Notes under the pieces: model-generated
What the model was told of the DNA's origin: nothing
Seen by the model: only the letters and a program-made list of their open reading frames with translations
Databases searched by the model: none
Made by a program: the position numbers and the translations under genes
In this document: positions 9,646 to 25,155 of the stretch, one piece after another
Layout of the letters: every line of letters starts with the position of its first letter
How positions within the stretch are numbered: position 1 is the stretch's first letter
DNA from: a virus
Lineage: Duplodnaviria; Caudoviricetes
Virus record (IMG/VR): IMGVR_UViG_3300033076_001091
Coordinates: 1 to 38,589 of that record
DNA length: 38,589 nucleotides
Strand: one strand, 5' to 3'

Positions 9646-9855
9646 TTACAAATTTTTTAAAAATTTCTTAAACTCTTCCGCATCTTTCTGCATTTTTTTC
9701 ATTCTCTCAATAGCAGCAGGAGGAAGTTTTGCTGTTTCAGCTTTTTTTATAATTTGGTCAGCAGCTCCTTTTTTTAATGTATCAAAGAAATCAGCTACAA
9801 ATTTATCAGCCATTGAAAACAATCCTTCGTTTTTAAGTGATTTATTATTCTCCAT
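9646..9855 (-). CDS. Small helical hypothetical protein
   Basis: 69 aa; own upstream ATATTTATA motif; stop 3 nt from the tape measure start. Confidence 0.75.
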   Translation of the reverse strand: MENNKSLKNEGLFSMADKFVADFFDTLKKGAADQIIKKAETAKLPPAAIERMKKMQKDAEEFKKFLKNL

Positions 9856-9876
9856 TTTGGGTTATTATTATACTCA

Positions 9877-9885
9877 TATAAATAT
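9877..9885 (-). promoter_or_regulatory. Putative late promoter ATATTTATA
   Basis: Exact motif 21 nt upstream of ATG 9855, immediately after a terminator. Confidence 0.65.
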
Positions 9886-9891
9886 TGGAAT

Positions 9892-9920
9892 AAAAAATAA
9901 GGGGATATAAATCCCCTTAT
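9892..9920 (-). terminator. Rho-independent terminator
   Basis: Minus strand ATAAGGGGAT-TTAT-ATCCCCTTAT followed by a T run, right after the stop at 9922. Confidence 0.85.
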
Positions 9921-9921
9921 G

Positions 9922-10146
9922 TTATCTCATTCTTACTTTAGAACCACCTGGTGATGGTCGTTTTTTAGCCTTTTCTATTTCTTCATTTTCCTTTTTCTTA
10001 TGGTCTATCAATTTTTTAAGATAGAACCTTCTCCAATGTATCGGCATGGTATAAACATCTTTCCAAGTAAATCCATTACCAAATTGAACCATACTCCATA
10101 ACTCTTCATGAAGAATAGTTGAATAATTAGTTGGAAGGGTAAAAAA
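9922..10146 (-). CDS. gp51-like / tail chaperone 'T' segment; probably a frameshift extension of 10127..10888 (absent from the ORF track)
   Basis: Open frame of 74 codons: FFTLPTNYSTILHEELWSMVQFGNGFTWKDVYTMPIHWRRFYLKKLIDHKKKENEEIEKAKKRPSPGGSKVRMR*. First ATG at 10092 would give 56 aa. Confidence 0.8.
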   Translation of the reverse strand, partial: FFTLPTNYSTILHEELWSMVQFGNGFTWKDVYTMPIHWRRFYLKKLIDHKKKENEEIEKAKKRPSPGGSKVRMR

Positions 10147-14988: not shown

Positions 14989-16275
14989 TTATCCAGTTGC
15001 ACTACTTCCATAAGCAGTTGTCAAACCACCGAAATTGGTCTTAGCTCTAACATAAATTACACCCGCAGTTTTATAATCATAAGTAGCTGCACTAAATGAT
15101 GTAGGTGCATCCAATATAGTAGTAAATCCACTATCTGATGCAATTTGAATATCAAATGAATAGTTTGCTGATATCGCAGTTGAACCAGGTGATACCACCG
15201 CTGAGTTTAGAGAAATTGTAGTTCTCTTATATGTTTCTCCACCTATTGTTACAGTCGATACTGATACAGTCGGTGTAGCCGAAATAGAATATCCTGCGAA
15301 TGAATTAGAACCTTTATTATGAGTTACAAATCCATTTACAATATATGTATCTACTTCTTCAACATCAATTGATACAACTTCTAAAGTAGAATTTTGAACT
15401 TGATTTTCTATCACTTCCACTTCTTCAACGTTGTTATCACCTAATACTTTAATAAATTTATCTCCACTTTGAACTAATCCCAATGGTTTAAATTTATATA
15501 CCGATTCATTTACATCCCAAACTAACATAGGATGTTCTCCATTACCTCTAACTGAACCACTTGCAGTAGTTACAATATTCCATCTATCTACGAATGTGTA
15601 AGCAACTCCAACTACTACTGAATCAGTTAATACTCCACCTGGAGTAGCATATGTCCAATCATAAAAGTTAAAATCAGTAAGTTGATTTACATGAGGAGGA
15701 TAATATGATTTAAGTATATCACCTTCTATTAAATCTCCCGCCTTTTTTGTAGTTCCATCTGCTAATAAAATATCTTCATCTAAATGCAAACATAAACCAC
15801 TTGCACCAGCATAGTCATCTACATTATAAACCGTCTTTGTTTTATTTACATTATATCCAGTTGCATGATCATTAAATCCATCTGCGAATTTTACACCAAT
15901 TGTTCTAGCAGTAGGTGCAACCAATGTTGCAGAGTTACCGATTGCAGCAGCGGTTACGGATGGATTATATGGGGGATTGGCTTGAAAAGAAAATTCAGAA
16001 GGTGCATCTATTGACCAGCTAAAATTTGAACTAACTGATCCAACTCTTGATAAAAAACGGCTACCAACATCGGTAAATCCTAATGTGAATGTTTCTGATG
16101 TTGATTCTTTGACATATGTAAAACCACTAATTGCATCTACCGAAGCAATACTAAATTCAGACATTGCAATTGGCCCAGTTGTTGTCCCAGCTGCAGATGA
16201 TAATGATTTTGCCGCAGCTCCTGTTGCTCCTTGCAAATTAGATAATGATAAGGTATCCCCTGATGCTCTAGCCAT
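14989..16275 (-). CDS. Hint (intein-like) domain-containing putative virion/adhesin protein
   Basis: Hint domain residues 162-320 (nt 15792..15316): CLHLDEDILLADGTTKKAGDLIEGD, block B NGEHPMLV, terminal VVSIDVEEVDTYIVNGFVTHN followed by Lys; FN3-like C-terminus. Confidence 0.85.
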   Translation of the reverse strand: MARASGDTLSLSNLQGATGAAAKSLSSAAGTTTGPIAMSEFSIASVDAISGFTYVKESTSETFTLGFTDVGSRFLSRVGSVSSNFSWSIDAPSEFSFQANPPYNPSVTAAAIGNSATLVAPTARTIGVKFADGFNDHATGYNVNKTKTVYNVDDYAGASGLCLHLDEDILLADGTTKKAGDLIEGDILKSYYPPHVNQLTDFNFYDWTYATPGGVLTDSVVVGVAYTFVDRWNIVTTASGSVRGNGEHPMLVWDVNESVYKFKPLGLVQSGDKFIKVLGDNNVEEVEVIENQVQNSTLEVVSIDVEEVDTYIVNGFVTHNKGSNSFAGYSISATPTVSVSTVTIGGETYKRTTISLNSAVVSPGSTAISANYSFDIQIASDSGFTTILDAPTSFSAATYDYKTAGVIYVRAKTNFGGLTTAYGSSATG

Positions 16276-21347: not shown

Positions 21348-22079
21348 CTAAGGTATTAATAATAATTTAGTATAACCATCTGGAATAGCAGAAGTATTAG
21401 AACCTCCAAAAGGATTTGCATTTGCTACCGCAGAAAGGGCAGATGTTGGAATTGTAAAATTACCAGTATAAACTCCCAATCCTTTTACTATTCTAAAGTT
21501 AGTTATATAACCTCCATATTGCTCCGATGCCAATCCTCCTACTTTTGCACCAATCACAAAATTATTTGGTGAATTGGTGGTAAGATTAGCCGTATTAGCA
21601 GTTCCTCCACTATTTTGAATAACTCCATCATAATATAAATAAACTCTACCACTAATACGAACTAATGCAAAATGTCTCCAAGCATTTTTTTGACTTAATC
21701 CAGTTTTAAGAGCCGATGGAGCCGAATTCCAAACATAAAATGTACCGCTTTCAATACTTACTCCAAATAGGGCTGAACCCGCTCCGTACCAAAATATTCT
21801 TGGAAACGAATTCGTATCAGTTTGATATTGAAACCATTCGATAGTATAATCACCTGTTCCAAATGCAAATCCATCTTGCCCCGCTGCATAAACATATGAG
21901 GTTGAACTATTTGGAAATGAATATGAATTACCACCTCCACTAAATGGAGATTGTGCAACAGTCGTTATACTACCAGCTATTGTAGGAGATGTTACTAATG
22001 TTCCAGATGGAGCACTTCCTCCTCCCACTACTATTGTAGGTTGATGATTATTAAACGCTATGGCAGTAAATAAACCCAT
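21348..22079 (-). CDS. Concanavalin A-like lectin / LamG domain protein
   Basis: FGTGDYTIEWFQY..WRHFALVRISGRVYLYYDG..GYITNFRIVKG..YTGNFTIPT..TKLLL. Confidence 0.85.
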   Translation of the reverse strand: MGLFTAIAFNNHQPTIVVGGGSAPSGTLVTSPTIAGSITTVAQSPFSGGGNSYSFPNSSTSYVYAAGQDGFAFGTGDYTIEWFQYQTDTNSFPRIFWYGAGSALFGVSIESGTFYVWNSAPSALKTGLSQKNAWRHFALVRISGRVYLYYDGVIQNSGGTANTANLTTNSPNNFVIGAKVGGLASEQYGGYITNFRIVKGLGVYTGNFTIPTSALSAVANANPFGGSNTSAIPDGYTKLLLIP

Positions 22080-23626
22080 TATTGTATTTGTCTAGCTCCG
22101 GTTGAAAGGATTGTTGAATTATTAACCATCATCATTGAAACTATATCTACCGCACTTCCACTTGCACTTCCGGTATTGAATGATCCAGAAGGAAATTTAA
22201 ATCCACTATCCCATCTTACACTTCCAGTTGTTGATTGTTGTGTTAATACTAAGTTAGCAGTTAAACCTGGTTGCATATTAGATGCAGTTATATGAGTTAT
22301 AGATGATGAAGGAATAGTTAAAGTAAAGAAAGTTCCTCTTGTGAAATCAATACTTGCAGTTCCACTTGTCACACTTAATGCTACTACATTTCCCGCTACA
22401 CTTCCAGTCACCGTCAAACTACCACTTATTATCTGAGAACCTTTGGTTGTTAATGAACCTGTGATTGAATAAGAAGAAGATAATTGATTTGTACTTTTCC
22501 AAACACTTCCACTTTTCATTAACAAATCTCCATACGAAGATGTTGTTGTAGTATCTACTACATCATTTACTTCACTTAATTTACCTTTTAATTGAGGTCT
22601 TACTAATAAAGTTACATTATTACCATTTATAGTCGTTACTGCTGCTATTCTTGATTTTAAAGCAGGTGCAGTTGGTGAAACATTTGTCATTGCTCCCGCA
22701 ATAGTTGGGTGTGGATAAAGAATATCACCTTCTACCCAAGTTTCACCTGCAGGTTGTATATGTGTTTTACTTACATTTCTAACATATCCAAACCAAGTTG
22801 CAAATCCAGTTCCATTATTTGGAATATTTTCAGTTAAAACACCAACAATGTAATCTGCAGGATATGTTCCATCTCCAACTGCTTTTACTACTGAAATTCT
22901 ATTTCCAAAACTTACACCAGAAGGATTAACCATTACTAAATCTCCATCTTGTAAATCTGCACCACTTTTATTTACAACAGGCGGATAATACAATTCTTGT
23001 CCCATTTGAAGAGTTGCATTATTACCCATTTGTAAATTAATAGTTCCATCCTGAGTATTAGCCCACATTGAATATGATGGAGCAGTTGTTATTCCAGATG
23101 ATGTGTTAAAAGTAATAAAATCTGCTGAAAGAGATCCAGTAAAAGAACCACTATATAATCCTAATATTCTACTATCAACTGAAGAACTAAAATTAGTTAC
23201 GTTTCCAATTCCTACTATACTTCCACTATATCCATTTGCAGTTATATATCCAACAGTCGTATCACTTGCTACAATATATAAACCATTTGCCGCAGGTATT
23301 AATTGTGTTTGTCCAGTTGAATTACCAAACCAACCAATTTTACCCGCTTCAGTTCCAACTAAGGGTAAATTATTAAAATCAATTAAATAAACAGTCGAAC
23401 CTGTTAAAAAATCATTAATTGGAGTTTCATCTGGAATATTAAAATCCCAACTATTGTTAGGTAATCCATCATCTACTACAATTCCCGTTAAATTTGCACC
23501 ATCTCCATAAAATGAACCAGTAAATGCACTTCCAGAGAATATGGATGCGGTTACGTTTAAATCTACTTCTAAATTACTAAGGGATGCATCCGAACCACTT
23601 ACGATGACTTTTTTCCAATTTGGCAT
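22079..23626 (-). CDS. Virion structural/fibre protein with capsid-cement-like middle domain
   Basis: MPNWKKVIVSGS N-terminus; NKSGADLQDGDLVMV..GVLTENIPNNGTGFATWFGYV..EGDILY..GAMTNVSPTAP. Confidence 0.6.
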   Translation of the reverse strand: MPNWKKVIVSGSDASLSNLEVDLNVTASIFSGSAFTGSFYGDGANLTGIVVDDGLPNNSWDFNIPDETPINDFLTGSTVYLIDFNNLPLVGTEAGKIGWFGNSTGQTQLIPAANGLYIVASDTTVGYITANGYSGSIVGIGNVTNFSSSVDSRILGLYSGSFTGSLSADFITFNTSSGITTAPSYSMWANTQDGTINLQMGNNATLQMGQELYYPPVVNKSGADLQDGDLVMVNPSGVSFGNRISVVKAVGDGTYPADYIVGVLTENIPNNGTGFATWFGYVRNVSKTHIQPAGETWVEGDILYPHPTIAGAMTNVSPTAPALKSRIAAVTTINGNNVTLLVRPQLKGKLSEVNDVVDTTTTSSYGDLLMKSGSVWKSTNQLSSSYSITGSLTTKGSQIISGSLTVTGSVAGNVVALSVTSGTASIDFTRGTFFTLTIPSSSITHITASNMQPGLTANLVLTQQSTTGSVRWDSGFKFPSGSFNTGSASGSAVDIVSMMMVNNSTILSTGARQIQ

Positions 23627-23800
23627 TTAATACTACGATTTGAGATTTAGTATCGTTGGAAAAAGGAGTTGGATAGAATATAAGATTGACACAATAAGGA
23701 TATCACCCATTATGAGTCTTTTTGTAAATCTTTATGTAAATCTTCTATCGCGGTTGGTAACACATTTTTGTGCCCACTTCCCTTTCAGGCCAACAATATC
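23627..23800 (-). ncRNA. Candidate cis-regulatory structured RNA (riboswitch-like 5' leader)
   Basis: GC-enriched 53-nt core 23798..23746 with a GAAA-tetraloop hairpin; a downstream antisense segment 23672..23651; a hairpin abutting the AUG (see findings). Confidence 0.6.
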
Positions 23801-23803
23801 AAC

Positions 23804-23812
23804 AATAAATAT
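23804..23812 (-). promoter_or_regulatory. Putative late promoter variant ATATTTATT
   Basis: One mismatch; sits between a terminator and the 5' end of the structured leader. Confidence 0.55.
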
Positions 23813-23832: not shown

Positions 23833-23860
23833 AAAAAAAGGGTAGATTAACTACCCTTTT
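23833..23860 (-). terminator. Rho-independent terminator (possibly bidirectional)
   Basis: AAAAGGGTAG-ATTAA-CTACCCTTTT with T runs on both strands; the stop codon of 23847..24107 lies in the loop. Confidence 0.85.
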
Positions 23861-24107
23861 CTTTTTTTTCTAAATATCTCTTTTGTAATTTGAGAATGAT
23901 ACTATAAATTATTTCTAATTCTATACCTTTAAATGTTGAATTTTTGATTAAATTGAAGAGATATTCAAACTCTTCTATTGTTAAATCAACACCATTTACT
24001 TTTTCTTTTTTCGGAGATTGTTGAGCTTCTTCTTTTTCTATTTTTTCAACAATTTCTTCCGTTTGTTTTTCAATTGGTTGCTTTCCAACTTTAGTAAAAA
24101 TACCCAT
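23847..24107 (-). CDS. Small hypothetical protein
   Basis: 86 aa; charged N-terminus; LTIEEFEYLFNLIKNSTFKGIELEIIYSIILKLQ. Confidence 0.75.
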   Translation of the reverse strand: MGIFTKVGKQPIEKQTEEIVEKIEKEEAQQSPKKEKVNGVDLTIEEFEYLFNLIKNSTFKGIELEIIYSIILKLQKRYLEKKEKGS

Positions 24108-24126: not shown

Positions 24127-25155
24127 TTAAACGTATATATAAATTTCTCCGGCTTCAATTCTCATATTACCAACTTGTTGATACGCAGGGATATCAGTTG
24201 TTACTACCGCTGCCACATAAGCATCTGGTGCAAATGAAGTTGCAGATGAATCAAATGATCCACTAAAACCCCATCTTAATGTTCCCGCATCAAATGCAAA
24301 TGCATGTCCAATACCACTTCCTTCATCCACTACCAAACCCGCTTCATCTGGATTTGTTGAACCACTATTTAAAAGAATGAATTTATCTTCAACTGCTAAA
24401 TTAGCTACGTTTAAGTAAGTTAAATCTCCATTAACATTTAAATCACCACTTACTGTCAAATTACCATTTGCAGTAGCATTAGCACCACTTAATGTGAATA
24501 CTGAATTACCAGCAGAAGATTTAATATCATTACCAGTTATTTGTAAATCTCCTCTAACTTCAACATCTGTTCCATTTAATTCTATTGCAGTTGCAGTTGA
24601 TGAACTGATAGTATTACCAGTTACTTTAATATCACCTGCAAAAGTAGTTAATGTATTAGAAGTTAAAGTAATATTTGTATTACCGTCTGATGCTAAAATA
24701 TCGTTTCCACCTACTTTAATATCACCAGCTACTTCAACATTAGTTCCGTTTAATGTAATTACCGATGCACTTGCACTATTTTTAATTACATTACCACCGA
24801 TTTGTAAAGTTCCAGTGATAATTGGATTAGATACTAAACCGATAGTTACAGTCTGACCGCTAACTCTCGTATCAATTTCATTTGCATCACCTGTGATTGT
24901 TAGGTTTTGAGTTTTTAAGGAAACTGTTCCAGTAGAAGCATCAGAACCGCTGATGTTTAATGTTGAAACTAAACCTGTTAATGCACTACCATCTCCACTA
25001 AAAGAACCTGTGAAAGAACCTGATAATACTGTGTTGGATTGGTTTGTACCAATTACGTTATATCCGGATGCACCAACAACTACTGCATTTGATGCAGAAA
25101 CTATTTGTAGTTCCGCAATACTACCAGATACTATGACTTTTTTCCACTGTGCCAT
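24127..25155 (-). CDS. Virion fibre-like protein with 28-30-aa beta repeats
   Basis: MAQWKKVIVSGS N-terminus; four G(D/T)(I/L)x(V/I)xGNxIxxS repeats; NLAVEDKFILLNSG module. Confidence 0.65.
   Translation of the reverse strand: MAQWKKVIVSGSIAELQIVSASNAVVVGASGYNVIGTNQSNTVLSGSFTGSFSGDGSALTGLVSTLNISGSDASTGTVSLKTQNLTITGDANEIDTRVSGQTVTIGLVSNPIITGTLQIGGNVIKNSASASVITLNGTNVEVAGDIKVGGNDILASDGNTNITLTSNTLTTFAGDIKVTGNTISSSTATAIELNGTDVEVRGDLQITGNDIKSSAGNSVFTLSGANATANGNLTVSGDLNVNGDLTYLNVANLAVEDKFILLNSGSTNPDEAGLVVDEGSGIGHAFAFDAGTLRWGFSGSFDSSATSFAPDAYVAAVVTTDIPAYQQVGNMRIEAGEIYIYV

Follow-up and report, generated by a model that had tools for sequence, protein, structure and literature searches.

A conserved three-way-junction leader ahead of a phage virion fibre gene and its possible role as a translational switch

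How is a virion fibre gene controlled when its AUG lies 178 nt from the end of the nearest upstream TATTTAT word, although 12 of the 17 copies of this word on the same (minus) strand are found 4–47 nt before a start? A preliminary description of the locus had remarked on this distance, which is indeed unusual, and proposed that the intervening leader works as an aptamer, an anti-aptamer and a start-sequestering element. The window (the whole stretch of DNA analysed, 38,589 nt) is a 38.6-kb piece of a virus record, about 20 % complete, on the minus strand of which an aquatic, T4-like myophage has its late structural genes (tail sheath, tube, baseplate and fibres). The nearest cultured phage sharing this gene order is Flavobacterium phage vB_FspM_immuto (hereafter immuto) and, judged from immuto only, the host may be Flavobacterium-like. 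All features of the leader and of the neighbouring genes given below lie on the minus strand.

The gene behind the leader (22079..23626) encodes a 515-aa protein of MPNWKK type, probably a virion fibre or decoration protein. It has no match in Pfam or PHROG, but the Atlas points to capsid-cement and tail-fibre C-terminal clusters, and the immuto orthologue is annotated as “putative tail fiber-like protein”. A LamG lectin gene (21348..22079; PF13385, E 9.5e-11) overlaps the fibre stop codon and is likely to be translationally coupled to the fibre gene. Upstream lie a conserved gene for a small two-helix protein (23847..24107), a helical hairpin with no PDB fold match and no Atlas family, and a paralogous structural gene of MAQWKK type (24127..25155), the leader of which is devoid of the core described below.

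The leader follows a probable terminator, as had been proposed: an intrinsic-terminator-like hairpin (23833..23863) ends the small upstream gene, and two such hairpins were found versus 0.3 expected in shuffles. The TATTTAT word (23805..23811) is likely a late promoter element. In its degenerate form, TA[CT]TTAT, it precedes 171 of 208 homologous cores by no more than 70 nt, and in 118 of these it stands 11–16 nt from the conserved GG. If the word is a promoter, its position just upstream would make the core the 5' end of the mRNA. The sequencing runs consist of contigs only; the RNA run holds a fraction of 0.18 of the short sequence words looked for, and the leader lies outside its coverage. 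As a whole, the leader has an unremarkable folding energy compared to shuffles (z −1.06). It also contains a reading frame of 25 codons (23710–23633, minus strand) that ends 6 nt before the fibre AUG; a leader peptide was rejected, since the AUG of this frame is found in 10 of 15 relatives and missing in 5, and its stops differ.

The first 53 nt of the leader form a conserved core (23746..23798) that the preliminary description had recognised as a GC-rich island and drawn as a three-way junction. Both points hold. The core has a GC content of 45 % versus 32 % window-wide and is the sole strong match to the model within the window (63.2 bits); its folding energy equals that of shuffles (z 0.02). 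The sequences quoted for the core (23798–23746), for a downstream antisense strand (23672–23651) and for a hairpin close to the start (23654–23629) were all found in their places. The consensus fold begins with P1a (about 5 bp), a 1-nt bulge and a GG/CC step, followed by P2, a linker RAG, P3 and a single A. The 5' strand of P1 (23790..23798; P1a, bulge and GG) is the predicted target of an anti-P1 strand discussed below. P2 (23780..23789) is the hairpin CCU-GAAA-GGG in the window; it starts with a C-G pair and its loop is free, relatives exchanging it for long stems. The linker AAG (23777..23779) has an invariant A and G and reads AAG in 201 and GAG in 8 of 209 cores (49 and 3 in the 52 protein-anchored ones). 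P3 (23755..23776) comprises UGG/CCA, a 2-nt bulge and a variable hairpin; its consensus is UGG/CCA or UAG/CUA with a free hairpin, and the UAG/CUA form may have a single origin. The junction A and the 3' strand of P1 (CC and GCGAUA; 23746..23754) complete the core, and the GAUA of this strand is also the start of a long downstream stem. Two closing stems had been considered for the junction: UAUUGU/GCGAUA is the conserved one, with a bulged U and the GG/CC step to be added, while GUUGG/CCAAC is not a conserved stem. Likewise, AAG alone is the linker of what had been read as a purine linker AAGUGG, its UGG being paired with the core's own CCA.

The invariant bases are all at the junction, and both loops vary. 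In immuto GA/UC replaces GG/CC. GNRA loops are frequent among the cores. A role of the GAAA loop as tertiary contact was rejected, other loops and long stems taking its place. At positions 23773 and 23758, the first base of P3b and the second bulge base, G with A changes to A with G in 25 of 209 cores; this double change may reflect a pair or triple of non-canonical kind, next to a near-invariant U.

The core is real and more widespread than first described. Pattern and protein-anchored searches yielded 209 distinct cores in 453 instances. A 19-nt pattern found at least 119 stretches, 118 with the entire core and a single chance match (L062). Lack of conservation or covariation upstream of homologues had been named as an outcome that would count against the proposal; the core is both conserved and covarying. 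In 55 diverse copies 96.7 % of the cells are paired and 11 of the 17 pairs have changed on both sides, a value reached by none of 500 shuffles, with slid controls at 27–47 %. In the set of 209 the paired fractions of P2 and P3 are biased because the parser demanded pairing there; in P1a, 782 of 836 cells are paired, versus 29–46 % when slid. Several compensations arose repeatedly: on a tree built from 71 columns of neighbouring protein pieces, which covers 185 of the 209 rows and leaves many forks open, the changes that are forced amount to at least 4 for the P1a G-C pair, at least 10 for the P2 U-A pair and at least 5 for the double change to A at the first P3b base and G in the bulge.

This pattern also bears on the idea that the element acts as DNA, i.e., as a recombination or module-exchange site before a hypervariable gene. 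The element does adjoin a gene with a highly variable body, and mobile endonuclease genes insert alongside. Selection at the DNA level nevertheless fits poorly with the retention of G-U pairs on the mRNA strand (in 172 of 209 cores for a P3 pair and in 101 for a P1 pair), with the frequent GNRA loops, and with the presence of one copy per genome without a partner site; we consider such a role hardly credible.

The core is tied to one gene. Among the best 80 of 545 confirmed fibre N-terminus loci, 76 fit the strict grammar, and the two leader types that make up the remainder reach model scores of 61 and 30 bits. The core always stands ahead of a fibre gene of MPNWKK type, including that of cultured immuto, whereas the starts of the paralogous MAxWKK gene lack it (0 of 20). 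Nine of ten large genomes possess one strong copy; the tenth, Mel-JY01, has neither the core nor an MPNWKK gene behind the small ORF. Outside phages, a strict pattern scan of GTDB for cellular homologues gave 0 matches. A looser pattern gave 63, of which four were strong, each preceding an MP[NS]WKK start; these are probably phage contigs within bins. The bins in question (L549, L555, L568 and L589), labelled Pelagibacter, Bifidobacterium, Flavobacteriales and unnamed, carry contigs of this phage group and are probably mis-binned. In two sets of 151 Bacteroidota genomes, some of them shared (37 candidates scored per genome), the best foreign match reached 28 bits, and the weak matches inspected were mostly within ORFs. 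The Bacteroidota and GTDB scans were filtered searches, in which weak relatives may have been overlooked.

The preliminary description could not assign the leader to a known class, and Rfam 15 agrees: the window and 8 relatives gave no match at the gathering score, and at E up to 10 there were 16 chance matches and no fitting riboswitch over the core. Glutamine-I (glnA, RF01739) and the SMK box (SAM-III), which we take to be small three-way junctions with a few words in common with the core, gave no model match at E up to 10, and their folds need pairing other than the P2 backed by covariation. The size of about 50 nt, the invariant junction and the intergenic place in a phage would suit a small ribozyme that cleaves itself, or a site at which a nuclease cuts the late transcript between the small gene and that of the fibre. 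We nonetheless find such processing very improbable: no Rfam ribozyme model matches, few unpaired bases are conserved, the terminator and the promoter-like word already part the two genes, and cleavage requires neither a fixed proximity to the start nor an antisense strand.

No description of the motif was found in the literature searched, PMC5737381 included; the core may be an unnamed one among the 8,495 candidates of PMC10690425. Structured leaders in front of a single phage gene family have precedents in the T4 gene 32 leader, in GP20-a and GP20-b (RF02991, RF03003) and in the gp32/GP20 candidates of PMC10690425. Regulation in cis by a phage protein is shown for gp32 and proposed for the others. 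The core differs from all of these in fold, gene and phage group, and has no Rfam match. It shares with riboswitches a conserved, covarying, aptamer-like fold in a 5' UTR and, with phage operators that bind a protein, structure placed where a single family of phage genes starts. Our verdict is that it represents a new leader family of a known kind, to which one lineage adds a predicted expression platform that gives it a testable polarity.

The preliminary description also noted a loose resemblance to c-di-GMP-II riboswitches. As reference we used Rfam RF01786 (clan CL00127) and the structures PDB 3Q3Z and 22MT, which, like the pocket residues, are described in PMC13715770 and PMC7288161. The comparison was a fair lead, since the strand that lines the pocket can be aligned with both strands of P3, with the bulge and with the 3' junction. 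Both RNAs have a three-way junction, lie in a 5' UTR and share a helix UGG-N-C / G-N-xx-CC that carries a bulge of two bases, with two purines and then the CC of P1 behind it. The place of U37 is occupied by U in 209 of 209 phage cores, and the 40-68 pair is G-U or A-U in 207 of 209. The likeness is real but local, and the core is not a c-di-GMP-II riboswitch; the features that define this family are absent. Natural c-di-GMP-II RNAs have a pseudoknot P4, with its 5' strand in the P3 loop, and a UGA/GAG K-turn between P2 and P3, whereas the phage core is nested, has a plain hairpin as P2, and lacks both A13 and any unpaired base between P1 and P2. Within the matching strand, the place of A69 is 175 A, 32 U and 2 G in the 209 phage cores versus 22 A and 4 G in 26 natural copies, and that of A70 is 157 A, 26 G, 25 U and 1 C versus 24 A and 2 C. 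A U at either place was found in 0 of these 26 parsed natural copies (3 of 29 remained unparsed); the window core has U at the place of A69. Finally, the place of G73 is A in 208 of 209 phage cores and G in 23 of 26 natural copies; a change from G to A here reportedly moves specificity towards cGAMP. The RF01786 covariance model, which recovered 33 of 121 Bacillota genomes, had no match to the core, and the phage-only distribution is another difference from c-di-GMP-II.

Could the core nevertheless be the aptamer of a new class of small-molecule or ion riboswitch, switched off when bound, with c-di-AMP or cGAMP as a named candidate? Its invariant bases cluster at the junction with variable loops, the pocket strand of c-di-GMP-II has counterparts in its P3 strands and 3' junction (U37, the 40-68 pair, bulge, CC, two purines, CC), and in the window lineage it is part of an aptamer/anti-aptamer layout with a transcription window of about 70 nt. 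Such layouts and windows are typical of kinetic riboswitches. In 61 Flavobacteriales genomes, a group relevant to the window through immuto only, GGDEF genes were found in none and genes for c-di-AMP cyclases (DAC) in 45. This makes c-di-GMP an unlikely ligand and, if a cyclic dinucleotide binds at all, c-di-AMP or a defence cGAMP the likelier one. A c-di-GMP-II variant that binds cGAMP isomers exists (PMC13715770). Against a small molecule stand the bulge bases that vary to U, as they do in none of the 26 natural c-di-GMP-II copies, the missing A13, K-turn and pseudoknot, the lack of cellular copies in the genomes searched, and the single target gene without a metabolic link. On balance we regard a small-molecule riboswitch as rather unlikely. 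Its boldest form, which we rate as quite improbable, would be a phage-only riboswitch class in hundreds of large aquatic Flavobacterium-type phages, the pocket of which is a de-knotted relative of c-di-GMP-II retuned to c-di-AMP or defence cGAMP; host signalling would set the dose of a receptor-binding fibre and its lectin in virions, and the window lineage would have gained a full expression platform on the first codons.

What the core might do to translation can be considered first for the common, short leaders, which lack the extension and hold 201 of the 209 distinct cores. In these the last C of the core is 12–27 nt from the start. Forcing the core to fold costs a median of 2.0 kcal/mol, and its pairs then overlap the region from −15 to +15 in 135 of the 201. 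Since the core ends so close to the AUG, a folded core may crowd or block the ribosome directly in these roughly 200 relatives. In the 66 short leaders without overlap the forced core shifts the cost of opening the start by a median of 0.2 kcal/mol only, which argues against simple occlusion there. The 78 leaders with a Shine-Dalgarno (SD)-like word have a longer spacing, and their P1a ends −6 to +8 nt from this word. SD-led and SD-less relatives in G295–G317 both have the core.

In the window lineage about 120 nt separate the core from the start. Eighteen distinct long leaders of this kind were found, with the core 114–126 nt from the AUG, confined to one lineage. The analysis covered fifteen of them, since L517 and L524 are truncated and L535 is a near-copy. 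Being close kin with 85 % column identity, they are not 15 independent tests. The extension comprises a long imperfect hairpin (23672..23749) closed by GAUAGAA/UUCUAUC, the predicted taker of the 3' strand of P1a. This hairpin of about 80 nt was a claim of the preliminary description, and the 7 pairs of its closing stem are invariant in 15 of 15 leaders. It encloses an inner hairpin (23688..23718) conserved with its mismatches, with 86.7 % of cells paired and 0 compensatory changes; U-U and A-A mismatches are kept and the 3' strand is near-invariant, features that might mark a second binding site or a pause site. Next comes the antisense strand (23651..23672), made of an anti-P2 U-run and the anti-P1 sequence CCAACGAUA (23659–23651). 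The anti-P1 pairing has 98.5 % of cells paired, with one-sided changes only. A third antisense helix, UGG/CCA (23672–23670), had been proposed and is not supported: CGA takes the place of CCA in 6 of 15 relatives, and in the alternative state predicted for L004 the helix P3 is retained. Within the antisense strand, the switch strand UUUUUCCAA (23656..23664) has two predicted partners, either the P1 5' strand or codons 3–6 of the fibre gene. The second had been overlooked: UUGGAAAAA (23610..23618), lying within these codons, complements the switch strand, and its synonymous sites are fixed in the lineage. Between the two is a weak hairpin (23629..23654) that ends 2 nt before the AUG and contributes −2.4 kcal/mol alone. 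Codons 1–7, 11 and 12 are invariant in the 15 long leaders, while 8–10 and 13 onward vary; among the 201 short leaders no more than 109 have AAU as codon 3, codons 7, 11 and 12 vary, and codons 5–6 are nearly fixed.

Two exclusive states are predicted from these elements. When folded freely, the P1 5' strand pairs with CCAAC-N-AUA (P>0.5) in 14 of 15 leaders, the long stem captures the 3' strand of P1a, and P1 is disrupted. When the core is forced, the switch strand pairs instead with UUGGAAAAA, so enclosing the small hairpin, and does so with P>0.5 in 14 of 15 leaders. Opening the region from −15 to +15 then costs 6.5–11.1 kcal/mol with the core held versus 3.2–9.0 kcal/mol free; the cost is higher with the core held in 15 of 15, by 2.1–5.3 kcal/mol. 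Mean unpaired probabilities over the same region are near-equal between the states in most relatives, and opening energy alone differs. For the window the opening difference is 4.18 versus −0.01 ± 1.12 in 250 dinucleotide shuffles of the extension, none of which is as high; the folding of the core is thus coupled to the opening of the start site more strongly than in any shuffle. The coupling was equalled by 0 of 120 shuffles for L012 and by 1 of 120 each for L004 and L127. The energy gap between the states (7.9 in the window) is reached by 12 of 250 shuffles. Two leaders depart from the model: L522 remains closed and L529 has no coding pairing. Compensatory pairs within the extension number 0 of 30, and although 94.7 % of the cells in the open-state helices are paired, the shuffle control is not exceeded. 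The proposed layout of aptamer, anti-aptamer and initiation site is thus backed in part, by core conservation, by computed two-state folding in 14–15 of 15 leaders and by the shuffles, and lacks a compensatory pair in the extension or a second lineage.

In folding of successive prefixes the closing pair of the core has a probability of about 0.6–0.75 up to 120 nt (with a dip at 108) and is gone by 132 nt, falling from about 0.7 to 0.03 after the long stem has been transcribed. The off state is 4.8–8.1 kcal/mol above the free ensemble, so that control should be kinetic or need strong binding.

One other long leader is of interest here. L304:2729–2914, known from two identical records, has a leader of 128 nt, a GUG start and an unrelated extension sequence. 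In the predictions its long stem also captures P1a, and its tail pairs with both P3 strands. The coupling is weaker (1.75; equalled by 5 of 120 shuffles). Further relatives of this extension were searched for and none was found. A separate origin is not supported, L304 being placed, with weak support (64), as sister to the window lineage.

We suggest that the fibre leader acts as a translational switch: as long as the core is held by an effector, most probably a protein of the phage itself, the switch would be off. The logic of the switch, as modelled, is the part we would call reasonably probable; the reading as a whole, effector included, has in our estimate not quite an even chance. The core would fold first, at the 5' end of the late mRNA. 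If an effector such as unassembled fibre or a partner of it held the core, the switch strand would lie on codons 3–6, the small hairpin would form and the start codon would be closed. An unbound core would refold, the long stem taking the P1 3' strand and the switch strand the P1 5' strand, and the start would open. The time open to the effector for binding would end once the long stem and the anti-P1 strand have been made. In the window lineage the extension would thus relay over 120 nt a signal that the short leaders pass on directly, and both the fibre gene and, via coupling, the LamG gene would be controlled. We infer this direction of control from the predicted folds. The predicted exclusive helices, the aptamer predicted to fold first and the bound state predicted to be off recall aptamer/anti-aptamer translational riboswitches. 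These differ from the phage leader in that here the first codons would be sequestered at a non-SD start, and most members of the phage leader family have no platform.

The leader might also need no effector. A fold at the 5' end of an mRNA could simply set its stability or a fixed low level of translation, the extension serving as folding timer or constitutive escape. The core does begin a few bases past the promoter-like word, 14 of 15 long leaders are predicted to be open at equilibrium, and inserts behind the core must be tolerated, since homing endonuclease genes have inserted there. Yet a stabiliser or damper needs stems only; it would require neither invariant bases at the junction nor a bulge kept at 1 nt, nor a double change that recurs beside the 2-nt bulge, and an escape device would not retain a start-closing hairpin and a pairing with codons. 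We judge this explanation unlikely, a shade more so than a small-molecule riboswitch.

As for the nature of the effector in a switch that responds to one, we favour a phage protein: the element occurs in phages only, once per genome and in front of a single structural gene, and phages seldom carry known riboswitches, of which a 2017 survey found almost none while asking about undiscovered classes (PMC5473149). The near-invariance of junction bases among distant phages would suit a small-molecule ligand no less than a protein, and the case for a protein stays, by our estimate, somewhat below even. No candidate RNA-binding protein emerged among the small upstream protein, bS21 and RegA. The ribosomal protein bS21 is present in 15 of 24 related phage records but absent from immuto and from five records that are at least 90 % complete and have the core (on bS21 see PMC9723584), and is not supported as effector. 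RegA was found in 0 of 15, in a search that included no positive control, and is not supported either.

The leader family deserves attention as an abundant, phage-only, strongly covarying element tied to a single virion fibre gene. The long-leader lineage provides a first handle on its logic, as it predicts that the folded core is off and names the strands involved, while the cultured pair of immuto and Flavobacterium sp. LMO8, with the short form, makes the effector and any effect on virion make-up testable. With a host signal as trigger, phages would use RNA to tune the virion parts that recognise the host; with a phage protein as trigger, the leader would be a new operator for assembly feedback.

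A number of minor observations were made in passing. Homing endonuclease genes or their remnants lie directly behind the core in L003:1216–1461 (minus strand), L334:674–853 (plus strand), L117:2–262 (minus strand) and the L429 leader. The inserted genes take over the start that belongs to the core, two of them beginning with MPNY, and the fibre gene then has a new SD-like word. The site behind the core appears to be an insertion hot spot. Elsewhere on the minus strand of the window, a 416-aa ORF (112–1362) has no Pfam or PHROG match and may, to judge by its motifs, be a piece of a family A DNA polymerase. A structural protein of 428 aa (14989–16275), with a weak PHROG match only, has a C-terminal stretch that ends in THN and is reminiscent of Hint domains or inteins. 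Lastly, the gap of 271 nt (9855–10127) between a baseplate-hub-like gene and a 69-aa ORF contains an apparent short, unlisted reading frame followed by a terminator, in the manner of tail assembly chaperone regions.
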